Shown here piece after piece: positions 3,077 to 27,917 of a DNA stretch of 27,922 nt. Source of the DNA: a virus. Taxonomy: Duplodnaviria; Caudoviricetes. The position numbers and the translations under genes were made by a program. Location: the IMG/VR virus record IMGVR_UViG_3300034357_000152, positions 1-27,922 of that record. One strand, written 5' to 3'. The first letter of the stretch is position 1, and the number at the start of each line of letters is the position of its first letter. The notes under the pieces are model-generated. The model ran no database searches and was not told the DNA's origin. It saw only the letters and a list, made by a program, of their open reading frames with translations.

Positions 3077-5443
3077 TTAATACATTGGAGCATAGGATAA
3101 AATATACCATTTAGTGCCATCGCTTTGTATAGTAGTACAATAACCACCAACAATGTCAACACTTGAATTTTCACCATCAGTTCTTACAAATAAATTTGAC
3201 GATGGAGTAACTAATGTTAACGCCTCATTACCTTCAGGTATATCAAAAATTGAGATTATAAATTTAACACCAACTGCATCAGACGCATTAGGAATAGTCA
3301 ATGTTTTATCCGATGTTAATGTTGTATAAATAATTGTATGATTATAAGTTGTAGCTGTATAATCTGCATTACTTATTTTTACAATAGGTAATCCCATATT
3401 TTTTTTAAACAAAATATTTCCTTCAAATCTTGCAGAATCATTTAAAATAGTTTTGCCGTCAACTGTTAAAGTATTAGATAAATTTGTTGCACCAAATACA
3501 CCTAATGTTCCATTCACATCAAGTGTCTTTGTAGGTGACGCGTAACCAATGCCTACCTTGCTTGTTGACGCATCCACGAAAAGCATGTGTGCGTTTGCTT
3601 CACTTTCCACACGGAAGTCGGAATCAGTTGCGGCTTCATTGAACACGGCGGAGGAATTGACGGTAAGCGGTGCGGATAATGTGGCGTTTCCTGCGATTGT
3701 TGTCGAGTGTGGACCGTATAATCCGTCGCTTGCGCCAATAACAAATCCATTTGCAGCGGAAAATCTTATATTAGCTATTGTGTTTCCTGCGTCGTGAAAT
3801 CCAATACTTGAAACATCATTTGATTCAAGCCTTATATTGTGATTTCCCCCTGAGGTTGGAGTATTGTCGGTAAAATTTCCAACAAACGTTTTATTTAGCA
3901 ATGTGGTTTCGCCTGTTACGCCAAGCGTTCCATTTACATCTAATTTATAAGCTGGGTTTAATTTACTTATTCCAACCCTGCCTCCATCTTGATTTGCCAC
4001 AACGGATAAGGTTGTGTCAAGATATTGCCCTAATTGACCACTACTAAAATTTTTAGCAGTCATTAAATATATATCAGATGTTCTTACATTATTTGGAAAC
4101 GTAGATGTTCCAGGTCTATCCGTAAATGTTATTTGAGCCGTTTGATTTCCTTTGTTATTATCTCTTTTTGCAAAGTAATTTAATAAATTATAATAAAATG
4201 TATTTGCGCTTCCATCGTGTGAGCCTTCTTGTCTATTTATTGTTCCCGTCATTGTTCCACCCGTCAAAGGCAAATAAGTTGATGCCGCCGTGCCCGTGCG
4301 CAAGTAATTTGTAAGCATGGAAGCCGTGTCAGATAAATTTAATTTAGCTGCAAATCTTGAAGTAAGGTTTAATAAAGATGTATCTGCATCCCTGAAATAC
4401 GGCGTAAGCATGGAAGCCGTGTCACTAACCAAAAGAACCGCGGTTGTATCTCTCCATAATCCTTCACTACTTTTGAAATAAAGTGAAGCGTTATTTGTAG
4501 GATTAGAAATTTGAACATCGTGAAGCTCGTCTAATTCTTGCCCATTTCTTATTTTTACAAATACTTCTCCGCTTCCTGCATTTGTTTTAACGCATACTCC
4601 AATATACACGCCATGGATAGGTGCCTGTGGCTTAGTAGATGTAAGTGCGCCTGATGTGGTTCCTGATAAATAAACCGCACTATCTTGCGTTAATGCAGAT
4701 GTGTTTATATTTGTTATTAATCCTTCTGTGATAATGTAACCGCTTGCATTGTTTAATATTTGCTCCGCAACAATGCCAAAAGTATTAGCTGATGTCGGAT
4801 CACTTGTTGCAATGGCTTTCGCGACGGTTATTCTGTTTCCCTGACTTCCTGACAAATAAACAACATCGCCTTTATTAAGAGTTGCGCCTGTTCTGTTATT
4901 TACCCGTTGGTGTAATTGTTGACCGATGACATTAGTAACTAAACCACCTTTTAAGCCTTGTATTAAAGAGCCTTGTGTATCATTATACTCCACTTCACCA
5001 ACTCCTACCGTGCCATCTTTTGCCGTATTAAATGTGATAGAATCAAAGGGCATGGTTAATCCAGGCGCACCGCCGACCAAGTTCCAAACGTTTGAAGTAA
5101 AATCAAATGAATAAAATTTTAAATTAACGGTATCAAGAATAACCCATGCGTTTTGGTTGTTTATCGGTTGAATGGATGCTGTGTCGGACAATGAACCACG
5201 CCAAACAAGCCCGTCGCCAGTCGTCTGGAAACCAAGGCGTTGTTTATTTCCCGTGTTTGGGTATTGCGCGAAAAGGGTAAACGAAAGGAATATAAAAAGA
5301 ATTGAAGGCAAAGTTTTTTTGCCTCCAATCTTCTTAATTAAATTACTCCCCAGTTTAAGCAATACTTGTTCCACCAATATTTCACCCACGCGCCCCAATG
5401 TTTTTAAAAAACGTCTTTCTTTCTTTGGTTTTATTTCACTCAT
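3077..5443 (-). CDS. Fibre/adhesin-like protein with apparent extended signal peptide
   Basis: Capsid-cement/fibre-like segment (NRTGATLNKGDVVYLSG...VYLS..TSGALT..KP), LDELHDV, two DTASML repeats, YLPLTGGTMTG and two VGI....P...LDVNGTLGV repeats; KKTLPSILFIFLSFTLFA/Q at residues 42-60. Confidence 0.8.
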   Translation of the reverse strand: MSEIKPKKERRFLKTLGRVGEILVEQVLLKLGSNLIKKIGGKKTLPSILFIFLSFTLFAQYPNTGNKQRLGFQTTGDGLVWRGSLSDTASIQPINNQNAWVILDTVNLKFYSFDFTSNVWNLVGGAPGLTMPFDSITFNTAKDGTVGVGEVEYNDTQGSLIQGLKGGLVTNVIGQQLHQRVNNRTGATLNKGDVVYLSGSQGNRITVAKAIATSDPTSANTFGIVAEQILNNASGYIITEGLITNINTSALTQDSAVYLSGTTSGALTSTKPQAPIHGVYIGVCVKTNAGSGEVFVKIRNGQELDELHDVQISNPTNNASLYFKSSEGLWRDTTAVLLVSDTASMLTPYFRDADTSLLNLTSRFAAKLNLSDTASMLTNYLRTGTAASTYLPLTGGTMTGTINRQEGSHDGSANTFYYNLLNYFAKRDNNKGNQTAQITFTDRPGTSTFPNNVRTSDIYLMTAKNFSSGQLGQYLDTTLSVVANQDGGRVGISKLNPAYKLDVNGTLGVTGETTLLNKTFVGNFTDNTPTSGGNHNIRLESNDVSSIGFHDAGNTIANIRFSAANGFVIGASDGLYGPHSTTIAGNATLSAPLTVNSSAVFNEAATDSDFRVESEANAHMLFVDASTSKVGIGYASPTKTLDVNGTLGVFGATNLSNTLTVDGKTILNDSARFEGNILFKKNMGLPIVKISNADYTATTYNHTIIYTTLTSDKTLTIPNASDAVGVKFIISIFDIPEGNEALTLVTPSSNLFVRTDGENSSVDIVGGYCTTIQSDGTKWYILSYAPMY
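4311..4424. repeat. 21-bp exact direct repeat within the fibre gene (encodes DTASML)
   Basis: GTAAGCATGGAAGCCGTGTCA at 4311-4331 and 4404-4424, 93 bp (31 codons) apart. Confidence 0.9.
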
Positions 5444-21136: not shown

Positions 21137-21411
21137 TTTTTACTTTGCTTTTGTATTTCATGATACAAGTTATCCTCAGCCGCTTTGGACGCAAGGTATT
21201 GAAATACCTCGTACAAATTTGCCCTTTCGCTTGATTGTAAGGGCGTCAACCCTGCCAAGTTAAACAAGCCGCACTCAGCTATTTTTTTAATCGTCAAGTA
21301 CCAACCGTATTTGTCATTCAATTGTCTTGAAGCGCTGGCATACTTTCCATCGCCTTTTTGAGCATAGAGGTCTGCAAATCTACTTGATAACTCTCGCTTA
21401 ACTTCGTCAAA
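21133..21411 (-). CDS. -1 frameshift extension ('T' part) of the tail assembly chaperone-like gene
   Basis: The -1 frame is open from the T9 run (FDEVKRELSSRFADLY...LNDKYGWY...) to the stop at 21133. The stand-alone 62-aa ORF has only a TTG start. Confidence 0.75.
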   Translation of the reverse strand, partial: FDEVKRELSSRFADLYAQKGDGKYASASRQLNDKYGWYLTIKKIAECGLFNLAGLTPLQSSERANLYEVFQYLASKAAEDNLYHEIQKQSKK

Positions 21412-22211
21412 AAAAAACCAATTTCAAAGCCAACTTGTAAAGGCAATTTTAAAAAGTCAAGACAATTCCTTTGAAAAACCTCGTCGCTATATGCCTCGTC
21501 CTTCTTCCTGAGCAACACGGCTATAACATGAAGCAAGCCCTGTGCGTCATTGTTTTCAATCGCCTTGCGCCCCTTGTCAAATTGGGCTGCTTCCGCGAAT
21601 TCAAGTAACGTGGACTTTGCCATTAGCTTATCAGGAAGATAATACAAAGTGCCATTGAAGTCGTAAATCTGTTTATACTTAAGTTCTTCGGGAACGCTAA
21701 TCGCATTGAGTATCTTTGAAAACATGAAGGTTAAATATTTCAGCTCCAGACTTTCCGCAACTTTGCCATAACAAGCATCTAAAGGAATGCCCGTGAAATA
21801 GTTTACCACCTTTGCCATGTACGGGTATTTTACCTGAGCCTCCCAGACTTCGTCCATGATTTCAAAACACTTGTCTAATGCCTTTTGATTTACGTTGAAT
21901 TGGTCAATCAATGCTGGAAGGAAACGGCGCACATTGTCTTTGACATTATCTGTCAAAAGGATTATTTCACATTCTTGAACCACGTCCGCCCACAACTTAT
22001 TCAAGTCAATGCCAATTTTCTTTGCATACGGTTTAATTTTTTCATACGCCGCGTTCATTTGCTTTTGTGCAACAAGGGCATCAAGTTCAACCTCGGGGTA
22101 TTGAGGTAGGATAAATTTATGGAAGTAAACGTATTGTTCCAATGTTATATCAGCTGCGGTCTCAGGATAAAAATACTTTGTATCGGAGTGGCTTAAATGA
22201 AATTGTACCAT
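21318..22211 (-). CDS. Tail assembly chaperone-like protein ('G' part)
   Basis: DITLEQY near the N-terminus, TLLEFAEA, LLHVIAVLLR and LPL......GFF; slippery GGT TTT TTT TTG near the 3' end. Confidence 0.65.
   Translation of the reverse strand: MVQFHLSHSDTKYFYPETAADITLEQYVYFHKFILPQYPEVELDALVAQKQMNAAYEKIKPYAKKIGIDLNKLWADVVQECEIILLTDNVKDNVRRFLPALIDQFNVNQKALDKCFEIMDEVWEAQVKYPYMAKVVNYFTGIPLDACYGKVAESLELKYLTFMFSKILNAISVPEELKYKQIYDFNGTLYYLPDKLMAKSTLLEFAEAAQFDKGRKAIENNDAQGLLHVIAVLLRKKDEAYSDEVFQRNCLDFLKLPLQVGFEIGFFLTKLSESYQVDLQTSMLKKAMESMPALQDN
21409..21417 (-). other. Candidate -1 frameshift site (T9; T TTT TTT)
   Basis: An X XXY YYZ heptamer in the correct phase; the -1 frame has a TGA two codons upstream and is open downstream. 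Confidence 0.75.
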
Positions 22212-22973: not shown

Positions 22974-23188
22974 AATTTTTCAAGTTCTTGTTTAACTTCT
23001 TTCCAATAATTAATGGAAGGGGATGTGTCATGTGTAGCCGTTAAAAGATAATGGATTTTTATTAACTCATCCACGGCAACCAAGGCGCATTTTTTAGCAT
23101 TATTTTTTTTCATGTTATCGCCTAAAAATGAGGTTATTTCATTCCTGAACTTATCAATTAACTCCTCTGCTTTTTCTTTTGGTGTCAT
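22970..23188 (-). CDS. MTxxEKA-family small protein, copy 1 (72 aa)
   Basis: MTPKEKAEEL...AKKCALVAVDE...YWKEVKQELEKL; start reassigned to ATG 23188. Confidence 0.8.
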   Translation of the reverse strand: MTPKEKAEELIDKFRNEITSFLGDNMKKNNAKKCALVAVDELIKIHYLLTATHDTSPSINYWKEVKQELEKL

Positions 23189-23195
23189 AGTTTTT

Positions 23196-24425
23196 TTAGT
23201 TGTGCGCAAGTGAATCCGAGCCTTGCATTAAACGAAGCGAGGCATAGCGAACTCCGTCAAGCCCGTGCTGATGCATATCCATTGGCGTTGAAGATTTCTT
23301 GTCATTCCAAATATAATTCCTTAATTCAAACTTTAAATTATACGATTCCTCAGTAACCACAATGGTAAAATCAAGCATTCGTTTTATTCCGTCAACCACG
23401 CTGCCAGCGTACTTTTCCGTCTTATGTACATTGATACCATTTGAGATAAGCGCGTCAATCAAACGTGGTTCGCTCGTGTCCGCAACAATCATGGCATCGG
23501 TTTCAACCTCATTCCTAATCTTTGTTACAACCATGTCATACGAAAGGCTTTGTTCGTAAATGATTTCCTTCACATAAATCTTATTTGCCGTGTTATCAAC
23601 CGCAACTTTGACAAGTGCCAAGGGGTCTGGATAAAATCCGAAGTCAAGCCCGTAGGCAAAAGGTAGGCTTGTATCAAATTCGCCCTCCACCCAGTTTGGA
23701 AATATTACGCCCTGTTTCTTATCCAGCCACTTCCCTAAAAACCTGTGCGCGTATGCCTCAGGTGACTTGCTTTTAATTGCCTCAATCTTTGCAATGTAAT
23801 CCTTGCTTATGTTATGGTAATTATCAAGGTACGTGGTATGAATGTGGGTTATATCTGGGTGCGTACTTATCGGGATCGAATGCCCATCAATCGTCTCCAT
23901 GCGATGCGACTTTTCAAACCACCTCTTCCAAATCCAATGCTCCACGTCTTGCGGGTTCATGACAAGGATAACAAGGTTAGGAGTATCAGGCATACGAATG
24001 GATTCGTCAATGGTATCGAAGTCCTTTTCGCTTACAAATTCCTCAGCCTCATCGACAATGAAAACATTTAACCCGGGTATCGACTTTAACTTTGCCGTTT
24101 GATTTCCTGAACTTGTTTTAATACCGGAAAAGATTATTTCACTCTTTGTCACCTTGTGACCAATTTGCGTGTTGGTCATATTGAACTCGTCACCAACGCC
24201 AAGCAAATCAATCTTTTCACGGAACTCAGGAATCACGGAAATATTTGCACTTGATAACGTGTAACGGGTAAACAACACCTTCCAATTCTTGTAAGCAAGT
24301 AACATATTGCAAGCCCAAAGCCCCACGGTGAATGACTTTGCCGAACCACGCCCACCAGTGATGAGGAAGTAACGCGTCTGCGGTTGCCAAAGGGCTTGAT
24401 ATTTGTTACTAACTTTTATCTCCAT
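23196..24425 (-). CDS. terL: Terminase large subunit (PBSX/SPP1-like)
   Basis: Walker A GGRGSAKS, Walker B FIVDEAEE, MNP, HTTYLDN, and nuclease motifs GLDFGF..DP and HGLDGVRY. Confidence 0.95.
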   Translation of the reverse strand: MEIKVSNKYQALWQPQTRYFLITGGRGSAKSFTVGLWACNMLLAYKNWKVLFTRYTLSSANISVIPEFREKIDLLGVGDEFNMTNTQIGHKVTKSEIIFSGIKTSSGNQTAKLKSIPGLNVFIVDEAEEFVSEKDFDTIDESIRMPDTPNLVILVMNPQDVEHWIWKRWFEKSHRMETIDGHSIPISTHPDITHIHTTYLDNYHNISKDYIAKIEAIKSKSPEAYAHRFLGKWLDKKQGVIFPNWVEGEFDTSLPFAYGLDFGFYPDPLALVKVAVDNTANKIYVKEIIYEQSLSYDMVVTKIRNEVETDAMIVADTSEPRLIDALISNGINVHKTEKYAGSVVDGIKRMLDFTIVVTEESYNLKFELRNYIWNDKKSSTPMDMHQHGLDGVRYASLRLMQGSDSLAHN

Positions 24426-24649
24426 TTAAAAGCATCCTTAATTTCTGTTTCTTCAAAAACGCCTTTTGCACCGTAAAGGACAAAGCCAACAATGAACAAA
24501 AGAAAGAGGCAAACATAACTTAATGGATTAAAAGGATTCCAACGTCTTTTTTCAACCATATACATTTTATGATTTGGCAATTCTTTTGTAAATTGAATTA
24601 CACTTAAAAACATTAAAATTTTTCTAATATTAAACATTATACTATACAT
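24416..24649 (-). CDS. Small membrane protein between terS and terL
   Basis: RRWNPFNPLSY followed by hydrophobic VCLFLLFIVGFVLYGA; AT-rich; overlaps both terminase genes. Confidence 0.65.
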   Translation of the reverse strand: MYSIMFNIRKILMFLSVIQFTKELPNHKMYMVEKRRWNPFNPLSYVCLFLLFIVGFVLYGAKGVFEETEIKDAFKWR

Positions 24650-24953
24650 TATTTTCCTTTGTAAATATAATCGTTGGCACGGTCACCTTTTCCCCCTGTG
24701 TCGTGATGTCAATGTTTTGCTTGCTTTTCCCGTATGCACGGTCAAGGAGCAACTGAGCCGCCTTGATGTCACCCTTTGCCGCCTGTTCACGAAGCTTCAT
24801 GATAATAGCTTCGGCTGCCGTGATACCGTCCTTTTCCTGTCCCATGACATTTGCCATAATCAAGTCAAGGGCTGGGAGTTTCTTAGGGCGTCCGTTGGGG
24901 TTGCCTGTTTCTCCTTTTTTCCAACGTGGTTCAATCTTTCCTCTTCCTCCCAT
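24642..24953 (-). CDS. terS: Terminase small subunit (DUF5681-like, 103 aa)
   Basis: WKKGETGNPNGRPK, A.KGDIKAAQLLLDRAYGK and DITTQGE; upstream of terL; start reassigned to ATG 24953. Confidence 0.82.
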   Translation of the reverse strand: MGGRGKIEPRWKKGETGNPNGRPKKLPALDLIMANVMGQEKDGITAAEAIIMKLREQAAKGDIKAAQLLLDRAYGKSKQNIDITTQGEKVTVPTIIFTKENNV

Positions 24954-24973
24954 TTCGTTGTTATTTCGTTGTT
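24952..24973. repeat. Exact 11-bp tandem repeat at the terS start
   Basis: - strand AACAACGAAAT AACAACGAAAT G. Confidence 0.85.
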
Positions 24974-25434
24974 TTGTATTCAAAAGATACTGTAATCCTA
25001 TTTTCTGAACCAGATGAAATATTGCCAACATTTCTTTTTAAATCTCCTTTATTAGGTTTGCTTCTTCCAAAAGTTTTACAAATCCATTCTTTTTGTTTTT
25101 TCAAAGAATAAATTAAATTAGGTTGAGATGTTGAAATACTAAATCTATGTTTTTCTTTATTGTAAACTTTTGCAATCTGATTTAAAATTGTACTTCCAAT
25201 TCCTAAACCTTGATAATCAGGAAGAACAACAAGTCTATGAACCTTTTTCATATTTTTTAAAAAAGGATGCGGAAAATGTAAAACGCTAATAAATCCAGCT
25301 ATTTCATTATTTACCATGCAGATAAAAACATTTGCTGCATTATTATGACTTGAACTTAAATAGTGATACTTACTAAACATTTTCCATATTGATTTATCTG
25401 TTGCTTGAAATAATTCAAATTTAATGTCAGGTCT
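24961..25434 (-). CDS. GNAT acyltransferase (Mom-like), reached by a -1 shift from the ABC ATPase or from ATG 25380
   Basis: FSKYHYL and acyl-CoA-binding HRLVVLPDYQGLGIG; the frame extends upstream (RPDIKFELFQATDKSIWK) exactly to the A9 run. Confidence 0.82.
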   Translation of the reverse strand, partial: RPDIKFELFQATDKSIWKMFSKYHYLSSSHNNAANVFICMVNNEIAGFISVLHFPHPFLKNMKKVHRLVVLPDYQGLGIGSTILNQIAKVYNKEKHRFSISTSQPNLIYSLKKQKEWICKTFGRSKPNKGDLKRNVGNISSGSENRITVSFEYKTTK

Positions 25435-26045
25435 TTTTTTTTATCAGAATGCTTTATAAAAGTCATTGTGTCGGTGTTAAAAACCCAATCAGGCATCAAC
25501 CATTCCTCTATATCAAAATGACATGATACCGCTATAAACTTTTTATCTGTTTTCCTGATTGCTTTCTGAGTGGCAAATGACCCAATCTTTGCAATCTGTC
25601 TATCTACAACGCTCGTAAATTCATCGAATACAAATAAATCATTCTTTTGCAATATCGCGTTGGCTAAATCCACCCTCATTTTTTCTCCATTACTCAAAAC
25701 ATGATAAGGTTTTAACCAACTTGGGGGCGTACTAAATCCAACGCTACTAAAAGTGTTTGTGATTTCTTCGATGGAACAATCTTTAGGCATATCGTCTAAT
25801 ATGCTTTCGCTTTTATAATTAAAATTAGTAATATAACTTTCTGGAAACAACTGTTTTGCAATCGTTGTTTTTCCTGTTCCACTTTTACCAACTATTAAAC
25901 CAATTTGCCAATCATCATCAATATCAATACTACCTTTAAACCTTTCGGTTATATGGTTACTTTGTAAATCAAATCTTCCGATTACACTTGCAATGCGAAA
26001 AGATTCTTTTGGCTTGATTTCTTTTATAATGTCAAAAGTCGGCAT
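25356..26045 (-). CDS. Soluble ABC-family ATPase
   Basis: Walker A GKSGTGKT, signature LSNGE, Walker B VFDEF, H-loop VSCH; no permease nearby. Confidence 0.9.
   Translation of the reverse strand: MPTFDIIKEIKPKESFRIASVIGRFDLQSNHITERFKGSIDIDDDWQIGLIVGKSGTGKTTIAKQLFPESYITNFNYKSESILDDMPKDCSIEEITNTFSSVGFSTPPSWLKPYHVLSNGEKMRVDLANAILQKNDLFVFDEFTSVVDRQIAKIGSFATQKAIRKTDKKFIAVSCHFDIEEWLMPDWVFNTDTMTFIKHSDKKKDLTLNLNYFKQQINQYGKCLVSITI
25434..25442 (-). other. Candidate -1 frameshift/slippage site (A9; A AAA AAA)
   Basis: GAT AAA AAA AAA GAC; the -1 frame reads TGA TAA AAA AAA AGA CCT..., so it opens exactly at the run. Confidence 0.7.
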
Positions 26046-26536
26046 TCGTAGTTCTGTTCAATTAGTTTATTATAAGTTCTTTCTTGCTCTTGTTCATCTT
26101 TGCAAATAACTTCAATCTTAAACATTGATTTTATTTTATCAGATAAATCTTCCATTTCTTGCTTCTCCACCGTGTCAAACTGCGGTATATCCAAGCCCCA
26201 TGCCTCCAAGTCCACAACCTCCCAATCGTTCGCAAGTGTGTCCCAATCCCATTCGCCAAAGGCGACGTTATCCGCAATAATAAACCGCTTCTTTTCCTCC
26301 TCGGTTAAATCGCTGCTTCGTTTTACCCATGCCTCGTCTATGTCATTAAATCCAAGTTCTTGTAAAACCCTGAGCCTCATGTTTCCACCAAGAACCACGT
26401 TGTTTTCATCAATGACCATAGGGCGAAGCGAAAGCATTTTTGGAAACTCCTTGATACTTTGCTTTAGCTTTTGAAACTTGTCATCCCTGAGAACCCGTGG
26501 GTTGTTTGGGTTTGGTTTTATGTCTTTTAGCTTCAT
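26024..26536 (-). CDS. ParB/Srx N-terminal domain protein
   Basis: IKPNPNNPR, LKQSIKEF, RPMVIDENNVVLGGNMRL, IADN..GEWD; C-terminal IEVICKDEQEQ module overlapping the ATPase start by 22 nt. Confidence 0.88.
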   Translation of the reverse strand: MKLKDIKPNPNNPRVLRDDKFQKLKQSIKEFPKMLSLRPMVIDENNVVLGGNMRLRVLQELGFNDIDEAWVKRSSDLTEEEKKRFIIADNVAFGEWDWDTLANDWEVVDLEAWGLDIPQFDTVEKQEMEDLSDKIKSMFKIEVICKDEQEQERTYNKLIEQNYECRLLTL

Positions 26537-26916
26537 ATTTTCTTCAGCAACTCTTTAATTAATCGCTTGTAAACCTTTGTTTCAATTTTCTTTTCCAACC
26601 GTCTTTGTGCGTTGATTGCAGCCGCCCTTTCTTTCCAACGTCTTTCGGCTTCTGGATCCCAATAAGCGCCTGAGGATTGTTCCTGATTAGCGTTAAACTC
26701 GGCGTTTGATTTATACAAATCTTTTGACGTGTTTTCTTTTTCGTTTGGGTCAAACGATAAATTATTATTTTCTTCTGCTGTTACCATAATGTTATTTGGA
26801 TTATACGCCGTTACTTCAATGGTTTTAAATGTTAAGTCCACAACCTGAGCCGTCGGAGCAATTCCAGGAATTAATTTAAATTCATATAATGATTTTTCGT
26901 TTACATTTCCCATCAT
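26533..26916 (-). CDS. Hypothetical protein
   Basis: 127 aa with ATGA overlaps on both sides; basic helical C-terminus. Confidence 0.65.
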   Translation of the reverse strand: MMGNVNEKSLYEFKLIPGIAPTAQVVDLTFKTIEVTAYNPNNIMVTAEENNNLSFDPNEKENTSKDLYKSNAEFNANQEQSSGAYWDPEAERRWKERAAAINAQRRLEKKIETKVYKRLIKELLKKI

Positions 26917-27917
26917 ATTCCTTTTAACACTTGTTTACGTTTGTTGTTGACGGTGAGCAAATTTCGCTCAGTCAAAAGCCATTTCCTGCCTGCCTGCAAA
27001 TGATTAAAATAATTCCCATCCTTTTCCAAAGCCTTTTCAAATTGATAATACAAATCGTCTGAACCCTCGTACAACCGAACGCCTGGAACATTGAACTCCG
27101 TTATTTCCTTCGGTGCATAAGGCACGCAACCTGTGACAAGCATTTCCATAGCAAAGTTATTCGACTTACTTTGATTGAAATTGTCATTTGTCAACGGAAA
27201 CACGGCGTAATGAGCCGCACTGTTTTTGATTAACTCGAAATATTGAAATAAGGAATTGTTCCACGGTATGACCTTGACATTCGGATACAATGTTTTTCCC
27301 AACCACTCAGGGATTCCAATGAATGCCACCTCGGTGTCCTTGCGGCTGCTGACATAATGCCAAAACGTATCCACAGTTTTCAAGTCCTCAATGTGCGTCA
27401 TGCTTCCACGCCACAACACGCGTTTTACTTTTGCCTCCAGCTTATCAGGTGACACGGGACAAAGGGGCGTTACTTGGAAGTCAATGGCATTGGGAATAAC
27501 CATTATTTTACTTTCGTCAAAGAATTGCTTGTAAAACTCTTTGAGGTATGGCGTTGAAACGATGATATAATCAGCGTACTTGAAAGCCTTTTCAACCGAT
27601 TCTTTTACCTGAGGTTTCCCGAAGTGTGCCGACGCTGGATTCGCGGCGTTAACCTCATGCAAAAGATCGTCATGGTCAAGGATGATTTTCTTACCCATCT
27701 TCTTCGCCTCAGCAATCATTGATAACATGCCGTCACCGTTTGGGCGTTGAAATAAGATAACATCAACGTCGTAAAAATCGTACCACTTTACCGTCTCAGG
27801 ATTGAGGTAAGTAATATGAAGATTTACCATTTGAGAACGAAGCCGCATAAATGGATTGACCGACCGATAATAATCAGTCGTTGGGCTGGTTAAATTGGTT
27901 ACAATGCCTAGCCTCAT
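26913..27917 (-). CDS. GT-B fold glycosyltransferase
   Basis: YYRS..PF, LFQRP, DHDDLL, ADYIIVSTPYLK, VIPNAID, WRGS.TH.EDL and PL..DNFNQSKSN...E are typical of phage GT-B enzymes. Confidence 0.82.
   Translation of the reverse strand: MRLGIVTNLTSPTTDYYRSVNPFMRLRSQMVNLHITYLNPETVKWYDFYDVDVILFQRPNGDGMLSMIAEAKKMGKKIILDHDDLLHEVNAANPASAHFGKPQVKESVEKAFKYADYIIVSTPYLKEFYKQFFDESKIMVIPNAIDFQVTPLCPVSPDKLEAKVKRVLWRGSMTHIEDLKTVDTFWHYVSSRKDTEVAFIGIPEWLGKTLYPNVKVIPWNNSLFQYFELIKNSAAHYAVFPLTNDNFNQSKSNNFAMEMLVTGCVPYAPKEITEFNVPGVRLYEGSDDLYYQFEKALEKDGNYFNHLQAGRKWLLTERNLLTVNNKRKQVLKGI

Follow-up and report, generated by a model that had tools for sequence, protein, structure and literature searches.

Introduction

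A phage GNAT coupled with an ABC ATPase has been predicted to acylate a DNA base, and was treated apart from Mom (Iyer et al. 2013, restated in PMC7824862). Mom modifies adenine in dsDNA with the help of Gly-tRNA (PMC13219725); by word look-up, the terms ABC, ATPase, ParB, and frameshift do not occur in that paper. Some phage T-dioxygenases require a ParB-like partner (10.1101/2025.08.14.668559). For dnaX, tau and gamma arise by a -1 ribosomal shift in E. coli and by slippage at a 9-base run in Thermus, with a reversed layout in some bacteria (PMC5009743). The +1 site of prfB consists of an SD-like element, 3 nt, CTT, and then TGA (PMC12421855), CTT AGG C is the +1 site of yeast Ty1, and in Roseiflexus IS630 the deletion of one base depends on a hairpin immediately 5' of the slip run (both PMC5009743).

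Here, we analyzed a window of 27,922 bases, the whole of a virus record from lake-water metagenomes (completeness 72%), in which an ABC ATPase frame and a GNAT frame are split at a run of nine A's (A9). Comparison with homologues suggests that this gene probably gives two proteins, a 229-aa ATPase and a 361-aa ATPase-acyltransferase, for which DNA acylation is predicted together with a ParB-like partner.

Organization of the locus

The window carries a tailed phage gene set on the minus strand, with terminase, portal, protease, tape measure, holin, and amidase recognized by Pfam/PHROG profile search. Because an SD-like motif is present at only 1 of its 23 long minus-strand ORF starts, and Bacteroidota ribosomes do not recognize SD sequences (PMC10798248), we infer a Bacteroidota host. 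The split gene lies within a GC dip (0.30 vs 0.34–0.45), and the gene order is glycosyltransferase, ORF, ParB-like gene, ATPase/GNAT, DUF5681, and terminase large subunit. The glycosyltransferase occupies 26913–27917, and methyltransferase-like genes stand upstream of ParB in relatives (L010:72-2513), possibly a second modification cluster. The ParB-like protein (26024..26536, minus strand, 170 aa) consists of a ParB_N domain and a conserved C-terminal domain of ~40 aa (26027–26152); it matches the PHROG ParB-like profile at E 3.7e-25 and PF02195 at E 3e-4, below the cut-off. Its gene overlaps the ATPase start by 22 nt, as do 141 of 240 upstream ORFs, and the ParB-like cluster adjoins the ATPase gene in 226 of 264 representatives. 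On the other side, the DUF5681 protein (24642..24953, minus strand; PF18932, E 6.3e-15), which from its position is likely the terminase small subunit (TerS), forms the downstream edge of a variable slot, and is followed by the terminase large subunit (23196..24425, minus strand; PF04466, E 7.4e-29).

The short product is encoded by the zero-frame ORF (25356..26045, minus strand), whose translation and Pfam and PHROG matches identify an ABC ATPase with a 25-aa tail, 229 aa in total. The ATPase domain matches PF00005 (E 1.2e-9) and an ABC fold (Z 14.9), and the motifs that we take to be Walker A (residues 53–60), the LSNGE signature (117–121), Walker B (138–142), and the H-loop histidine (H176) are invariant or nearly so among relatives. 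The ATPase frame reads TCT GAT and then nine A's (25434..25442, minus strand; S-D-K-K-K), and stops 25 codons on at TAA (25358–25356). Directly before the run, the -1 frame is shut by TGA (25446–25444) and TAA (25443–25441, using the first two A's), so that a productive shift is confined to the run; this closing pair spans 25441..25446 on the minus strand, and beyond it the frame has no stop for 159 codons, as far as 24964. It encodes the GNAT acyltransferase domain (24961..25434, minus strand, 157 codons), the C-terminal half of the long product, as assigned by Pfam (PF00583, E 8.5e-10), PHROG, and the fold of the fused relative L010. A single PHROG family, phrog_11143 (357 positions), matches both halves, at 9–215 (E 1.5e-63) and 198–349 (E 1.6e-31). 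An earlier note on this DNA had described a 361-aa fusion against a 229-aa ATPase and had called A AAA AAA a canonical -1 slippery heptamer. All coordinates of that note were confirmed, we obtained the same lengths (204 + 157 codons for the fusion), and A_AAA_AAA is in the zero frame of the ATPase ORF. The junction peptide predicted for the long product in the -1 frame is RPDIKFELFQATDK. Tail-frame conservation and the L010 fold indicate that 25356..25433 (minus strand) is dual-coding, the tail of the short product overlying the GNAT's first strand and its first helix.

A run at the junction is more than expected by chance: A/T runs of at least 8 number only four in the window, with no second A9 on the coding strand, and all 80 loci of the first relative set (the best 80 matches, read by eye) have an A-run at the junction. 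The other runs of 8–9 lie at 21409–21417, 3399–3406, and 23103–23110; read on the coding strand, the first of these is T9, within a 297-aa ORF (22211–21318) whose relatives adjoin terminase genes.

A conserved off-frame reading frame and stop

The homologue set comprises 539 loci plus the window, drawn from viral contigs, species genomes, metagenomes, and 16 cultured-phage records; each scan contributed its best matches (at most 80), some contigs are present twice, and the species-genome scan favored fused genes. Profile search places both domains in one frame in 414 of the 540 loci and finds the window's type of split in 112; of the remainder, 3 have the opposite split, 1 was mis-scored, and 10 are without a scorable GNAT. 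The 520 loci with a usable ATPase were reduced at 85% identity to 265 representatives (204 fused, 57 split, and 4 other), which are mutually related, and counts over them are not independent trials. In Pseudoalteromonas phage SL25 (L084, MF370965.1), the ParB-like and ATPase-GNAT genes are intact yet missing from the annotation.

In each of the 240 representatives whose site could be located, the reading frame that runs one base ahead of the GNAT frame stays open from the junction until it meets a stop lying 10 nt into the (H/Y)HYL codons; chance would leave ~140 open and 64 ending at that stop. This stop is fixed in 528 of 529 anchored loci and in 263 of 264 representatives (119.5 expected), with TAA, TGA, and TAG all used, and is the one that ends the short protein of the window (TAA, 25356..25358, minus strand). 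The sole exception, L193, also has a weakened SD. The serine after HHYL is encoded by AGY in 145/145 cases, compared with 1,182/3,120 over the ATPase portion of the fused genes. Among 100 of the 169 full-length fused representatives, the +1 frame contains 0 stops in 2,214 junction codons, while stops in the same frame reach 754/15,032 (5.0%) in the ATPase and 595/10,695 (5.6%) in the GNAT, and the other off-frame of the junction has 180/2,214 (8.1%). The stop column is filled in 99% of these 100 genes, and the next best of 336 columns in 69%.

A fused gene would have no reason to keep an off-frame ORF and its stop unless they are translated, and this conservation, together with the signals found at the junction, suggests that both proteins are likely selected family-wide. 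We consider it very probable that both products are made and selected, the support being comparative throughout, from sequence conservation. In the structural model, the short product has a pLDDT of 88.9, and its tail (~60) is moderately ordered.

Slip sites of the split relatives

The split register of the window is shared by Lactococcus P335 and Streptococcus phages, among others; among split genes the register is constant while the slip site varies. Poly-A sites occur in the window's lineage, in Gilliamella, in Alistipes, and elsewhere, with a run length of 9–10 in 52 of 53 loci. T_TTT or C_CCC sites are found in P335, in Streptococcus phages, and at other loci. A 3' stem is present in 22 of 36 T/C split representatives (one of which, L509, is a mis-binned poly-A site) versus 0 of 18 poly-A split sites, and 3 split representatives have no called site. 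Firmicutes relatives thereby have -1 sites of the classical kind, with a 3' stem. In L082, L083, L230, and related loci, the 5' arm of the stem is GCCCAC or CCCCAC, 3' of T_TTT; its downstream pairing partner stands at one of two positions, depending on the phage, and the loop between them is long. An unrooted tree of 197 ATPases, built by a quick method with 26 of 194 branches starred, requires 19 changes between fused and split forms, with weak support and no order.

Mirror-image signals in the fused relatives

Comparison of fused and split genes indicated that the former mirror the latter, in that a +1 shift would release the short form. A prfB-like signal lies at the junction in 149 of the 204 fused representatives. 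In 114 of them, an SD-like GGAGG or GGGGG is followed, after 3 nt, by an in-frame CTT (0.9 expected under synonymous resampling; 0 of 1,829 control windows), and in 35 more the same SD precedes GTT, CAT, or GAA/CAA-A (1.4 expected). The SD 5-mers share one phase in 156 of 162 cases. The codon after the slip codon in the 149 sites is a sense codon (CGG in 52, CAA in 33, AGG in 20, TGG in 19, and others), so that a stop codon after CTT, as in prfB, was not encountered; most sites have C or A after CTT. In L109 and L115, the SD and 3 nt are followed by ATG GTT/GTC in place of CTT, and the off-frame stop is retained. The window's own junction carries no prfB-like signal.

The remaining fused representatives have A9 or longer (29), A8 (1), T8 or longer (4), or none of these (21). 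Distinct junctions of the A10 class number 60; a hairpin terminates 1 nt 5' of the run in 56 of them and is stronger than in synonymous recodings in 57 (p ≤ 0.05). Over 55 of 58 distinct junctions (excluding L010, L150, and L529, with no hairpin or a longer one), 95.9% of the cells are paired, with 71 compensatory cells in 6 of 8 pairs, versus 34–65% in slid controls; the structure was read from the same sequences that were tested for covariation, which favors it. Given the junction peptide, poly-A is modestly enriched in both classes (fused, 29 vs 17.4 expected; split, 21 vs 13.8). Two other readings of the run were given up: that an A10 slip is aimed at an immediate stop of the other frame (the +1 frame is open in 30 of 30 vs 16.4 expected), and that hairpin and A-run form a terminator (the hairpin-then-T order occurs on neither strand).

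Among low-GC loci, SDs at nearby starts are found in 18% for hairpin-A10 genes, 38% for SD-type genes, and 37% for split poly-A genes; as a loose trend, signal type may be tied to the SD use of the host. Of the archaeal copies L152, L153 (Methanoregulaceae), and L173 (Bathyarchaeota), two are fused and keep the off-frame stop without any of the five signals, and one seems split at A7.

The earlier note had held that in-frame homologues lacking poly-A would speak against recoding. Since the fused homologues instead carry slip signals of their own and keep the short frame and stop, the evidence for recoding is stronger than that note guessed.

Polymerase or ribosome at the A9 run

An added A in the transcript and a one-base slip back of the ribosome give an identical 361-aa protein. 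With nine A's, the window's run has the length of a transcriptional slippage site (9 or more A or T); a run of 9 is efficient for slippage (PMC5009743), which amounts to ~20–25% in tssM (PMC4256274). Because the run has this length, no stimulator was found, and A_AAA_AAG is absent, we favor, with moderate confidence, RNA polymerase slippage as the route in this phage.

A ribosomal -1 shift at A_AAA_AAA, giving both products, is a possible route and the less probable of the two. The heptamer is in the correct frame for it, the protein is the same by either route, and the Firmicutes relatives with a classical -1 site and a 3' stem (22/36) make such a shift plausible within the family. However, no usual stimulator was found at the run. 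A 3' stem at the run does not exceed synonymous recodings (p 0.95, stems only; z 0.15), in line with its absence from the 18 split poly-A sites, and no SD lies 10–14 nt upstream of the heptamer. A_AAA_AAG, the best E. coli shift site (PMC5009743), occurs in none of 57 heptamer instances of the split class, and the near-constant length of 9–10 in split poly-A loci likewise argues for slippage by the polymerase. A 5' hairpin is likewise lacking (present in 2 of 28; window z -0.31 and 0.15), and one seen by eye upstream of the window's run was not above chance.

Identity and probable substrate of the acyltransferase

The GNAT fold spans residues 206–352 in the model of L010 (pLDDT 94.0) and resembles RimI/NAT-type GNATs (Z 14.5, rmsd 3.7, 138 residues aligned). 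The domain had been called Mom-like, a label that does not hold as family membership: PF25680 has no match in the window at E ≤ 0.01 nor in L010 at E ≤ 0.001, while the slot neighbor L554 matches at 6.8e-46, and comparison with Mu Mom gave an hhalign probability of 0.2% (E 0.37) and a BLAST E of 10. Mom is not among the best 50 structural matches listed for the L010 fold, an absence that excludes nothing. Foldseek with the long model returned only ABC domains, the best PDB match in a search with the GNAT sequence had E 0.011, and no NCBIfam match above the cut-off was among the matches listed.

To characterize the slot between ParB_N and TerS, we surveyed 62 loci (L542–L603) whose ParB_N is 85–100% identical, naming modules by Pfam on 1–2 representatives per cluster. 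The ATPase-GNAT module occupies the slot in 9 of 62, another module in 46, and an unclassified one in 7. The other modules are ParB-fused methylase (N6/N4 MTase, 12), QueC/QueD (8), Mom (7), TAGT (7), C5 methylase (5), Tet/JBP (4), and PAPS reductase (3). The slot is hypervariable among close relatives, with at least eight alternative modules, most of them with a different ParB C-terminal tail. Slot proteins L592:2046-2939 and L571:1941-2732 and the genes of L593 have no Pfam match, and L547:3691-4954 holds DUF4417 and an ORF matching an ADP-ribosyltransferase family (PF03496), behind the ParB-methylase, in 4 of 62 loci. In Mu-like phages, the ATPase-GNAT module comes after com.

Since this slot holds DNA-modifying enzymes in near-identical phages and the module follows com, phage DNA is fairly probably the substrate of the acyltransferase. 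On another reading, recoding does occur, but acylation is directed at a protein (for example, a host protein or one of the packaging machinery) or at tRNA. This appears doubtful, although it deserves weight: the nearest solved folds are RimI and NAT-type protein N-acetyltransferases, there is no similarity to Mom, and ASCH genes lie nearby in some loci. A common GNAT fold, however, does not give the substrate, and the contents of the slot and the position after com argue against this reading.

Because the ~40-aa C-terminal domain of the ParB-like protein is conserved and stands alone in Mu-like phages, it is likely an adaptor. As a stand-alone protein of ~45–55 aa, it is found just upstream of the ATPase in the Mu-like L087, L090, L091, and L095, after com and before a formyltransferase; one copy is annotated "acr candidate".

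Other explanations of the split

The earlier note offered recoding, or else a run that acts as an on/off switch for modification. In such a switch, run length in the DNA would turn modification on (A10) or off (A9), the window being in the off state. Its recoding of the gene into free ATPase and ATPase-GNAT is supported by the comparisons above; the switch is not, and we regard it as very unlikely. In its favor, L010 is an in-frame A10 copy of the window's junction with 97% ATPase identity, and the hairpin lineage contains the length variants L480 and L513 (A9) and L013 (A11). Run length is nevertheless close to fixed within lineages. A9 is identical in 8 of 11 distinct relatives with ATPase identity of at least 90%; the other three are in frame, L010 as described and L011 and L465 with a different, hairpin-type junction. 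Thus, 8 of the 9 distinct sequences with the window's junction have A9 and one has A10. Contigs of 7 of 8 sequencing runs bridge the run with 0 gaps (4/4 in a first set and 3/4 in a second, the fourth having no record with 31 letters on both sides), and all seven read A9, although contigs drop rare variants and the second set's three are possibly this DNA's own source. A switch would also leave unexplained the conserved off-frame ORF and stop of fused genes and the SD-CTT and T_TTT-stem signals, which are not repeats and are the kind most relatives use.

More improbable still is that two separate genes are present and no shift takes place, with ATG 25380 serving as a GNAT start that is coupled to the stop of the ATPase. 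An in-frame ATG does lie 22 nt 5' of the ATPase stop, and P335 and other records are annotated as two genes. Such a start, raised before as evidence against a fusion, is not general: of the 57 split representatives, 11 have Met at this position and 19 have an ATG anywhere in the interval, and initiation there would remove strand 210–215 and part of helix 218–227 of the GNAT fold. An assembly error or a recently broken gene, suggested by error-prone homopolymers and by the 414 in-frame loci, has next to no probability and is largely refuted, since the bridging contigs do not bear out an A10 misread and the same register of split recurs in 112 loci of many lineages with the GNAT intact.

Discussion

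We propose that default translation of the A9 mRNA would give the 229-aa ATPase, and that RNA polymerase, slipping at A9 and adding one A, would give the 361-aa ATPase-acyltransferase; with the ParB-like partner, the short and long forms are predicted to acylate phage DNA. Since ABC domains act in pairs, the simplest use of two forms would be a short-long pair carrying one GNAT, and we slightly favor a complex in which the forms pair via their ABC domains, with two ATPase heads and fewer GNATs. Across the family, the same outcome would be reached through at least five signals. Split genes would use (a) a bare A9–10 or (b) N_TTT or C_CCC with a 3' stem, and fused genes would shift +1 and release the short form at (c) an SD, 3 nt, and CTT, (d) A10 preceded, at a distance of 1 nt, by a hairpin, or (e) T8–9. 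It is moderately probable that this very widespread phage DNA-modification enzyme needs two forms, and that at least five recoding signals, some shifting in one direction and some in the other, can stand in for each other at one junction; the fused ORFs would hide a second product, and signal choice may follow the host ribosome. If this reading is true, SD-driven +1 shifting on a sense codon would make it a second large family with prfB geometry.

The family would then provide a ready-made series of natural recoding signals that all serve a single product pair. Among them would be SD-dependent +1 sites that lack a stop codon and a hairpin-slippage site that covaries strongly. If true, the annotation of a large phage family changes, with split and fused entries each encoding two proteins. 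The result also bears on testing the long-predicted ABC-GNAT DNA modification: codon-optimized synthetic genes, as in the screens of 10.1101/2025.08.14.668559, would be expected to erase the signals and yield one form only, so the native junction and the ParB partner are worth keeping in such screens.

In comparison with the published ABC-ATPase-coupled GNAT, the window has the same two domains, PHROG family (phrog_11143), and ParB and terminase neighborhood; the accessible text of PMC7824862 gives one coupled enzyme and mentions neither recoding nor a short form. Our literature search, with word look-ups in the accessible parts of PMC3711429, PMC5009743, PMC9227772, and 10.1101/2025.10.02.679949, and with Iyer 2013 and the PMC3711429 supplements (146 candidate clusters) outside its scope, gave no report of recoding in this family. 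Mu Mom (PF25680) shares with the window's GNAT the superfamily and the genomic slot, but has no detectable sequence similarity to it; the GNAT here is fused to an ATPase, and its DNA modification is predicted. With the ParB-dependent T-dioxygenases, the window has a ParB-like partner gene in common.

Among recoding systems, prfB shares its SD-like AGGGGG/GGAGG, 3 nt, and CTT with 114 of 204 fused relatives, but has TGA where these have a sense codon (CGG, CAA, AGG, TGG, or others), and its shift completes a protein whereas theirs would truncate one. The CTT AGG C of Ty1 occurs in several fused relatives. Roseiflexus IS630 has a nascent hairpin directly 5' of the slip run and a one-base deletion, as the fused poly-A relatives need; its run is T5C5, however, while theirs is A10 with a deletion that would lead to the short form, and the window's lineage has no such hairpin. 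Like the window's gene as proposed here, chlD has a poly-A -1 site that links an ATPase with a second domain, has homologues in which the two are fused, and yields two subunits from one gene, but it is a chromosomal AAA+ chelatase, and a +1 signal in its fused genes is not described in the accessible parts of the sources (PMC3711429, PMC9227772). As proposed for the window's family, dnaX gives a long and a short ATPase form with a shared N-terminus from one gene, by routes and layouts that differ by lineage. Unlike dnaX, the window's family combines an ABC ATPase with a GNAT, appears to use both shift directions and at least five signals, and has a short form with a conserved tail of ~25 aa and a fixed stop. 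The enzyme family is already in print as a prediction, and its recoding, as read from the sequences, resembles that of dnaX and chlD but stands out for its breadth and for how many signals it has and the directions in which they would act.
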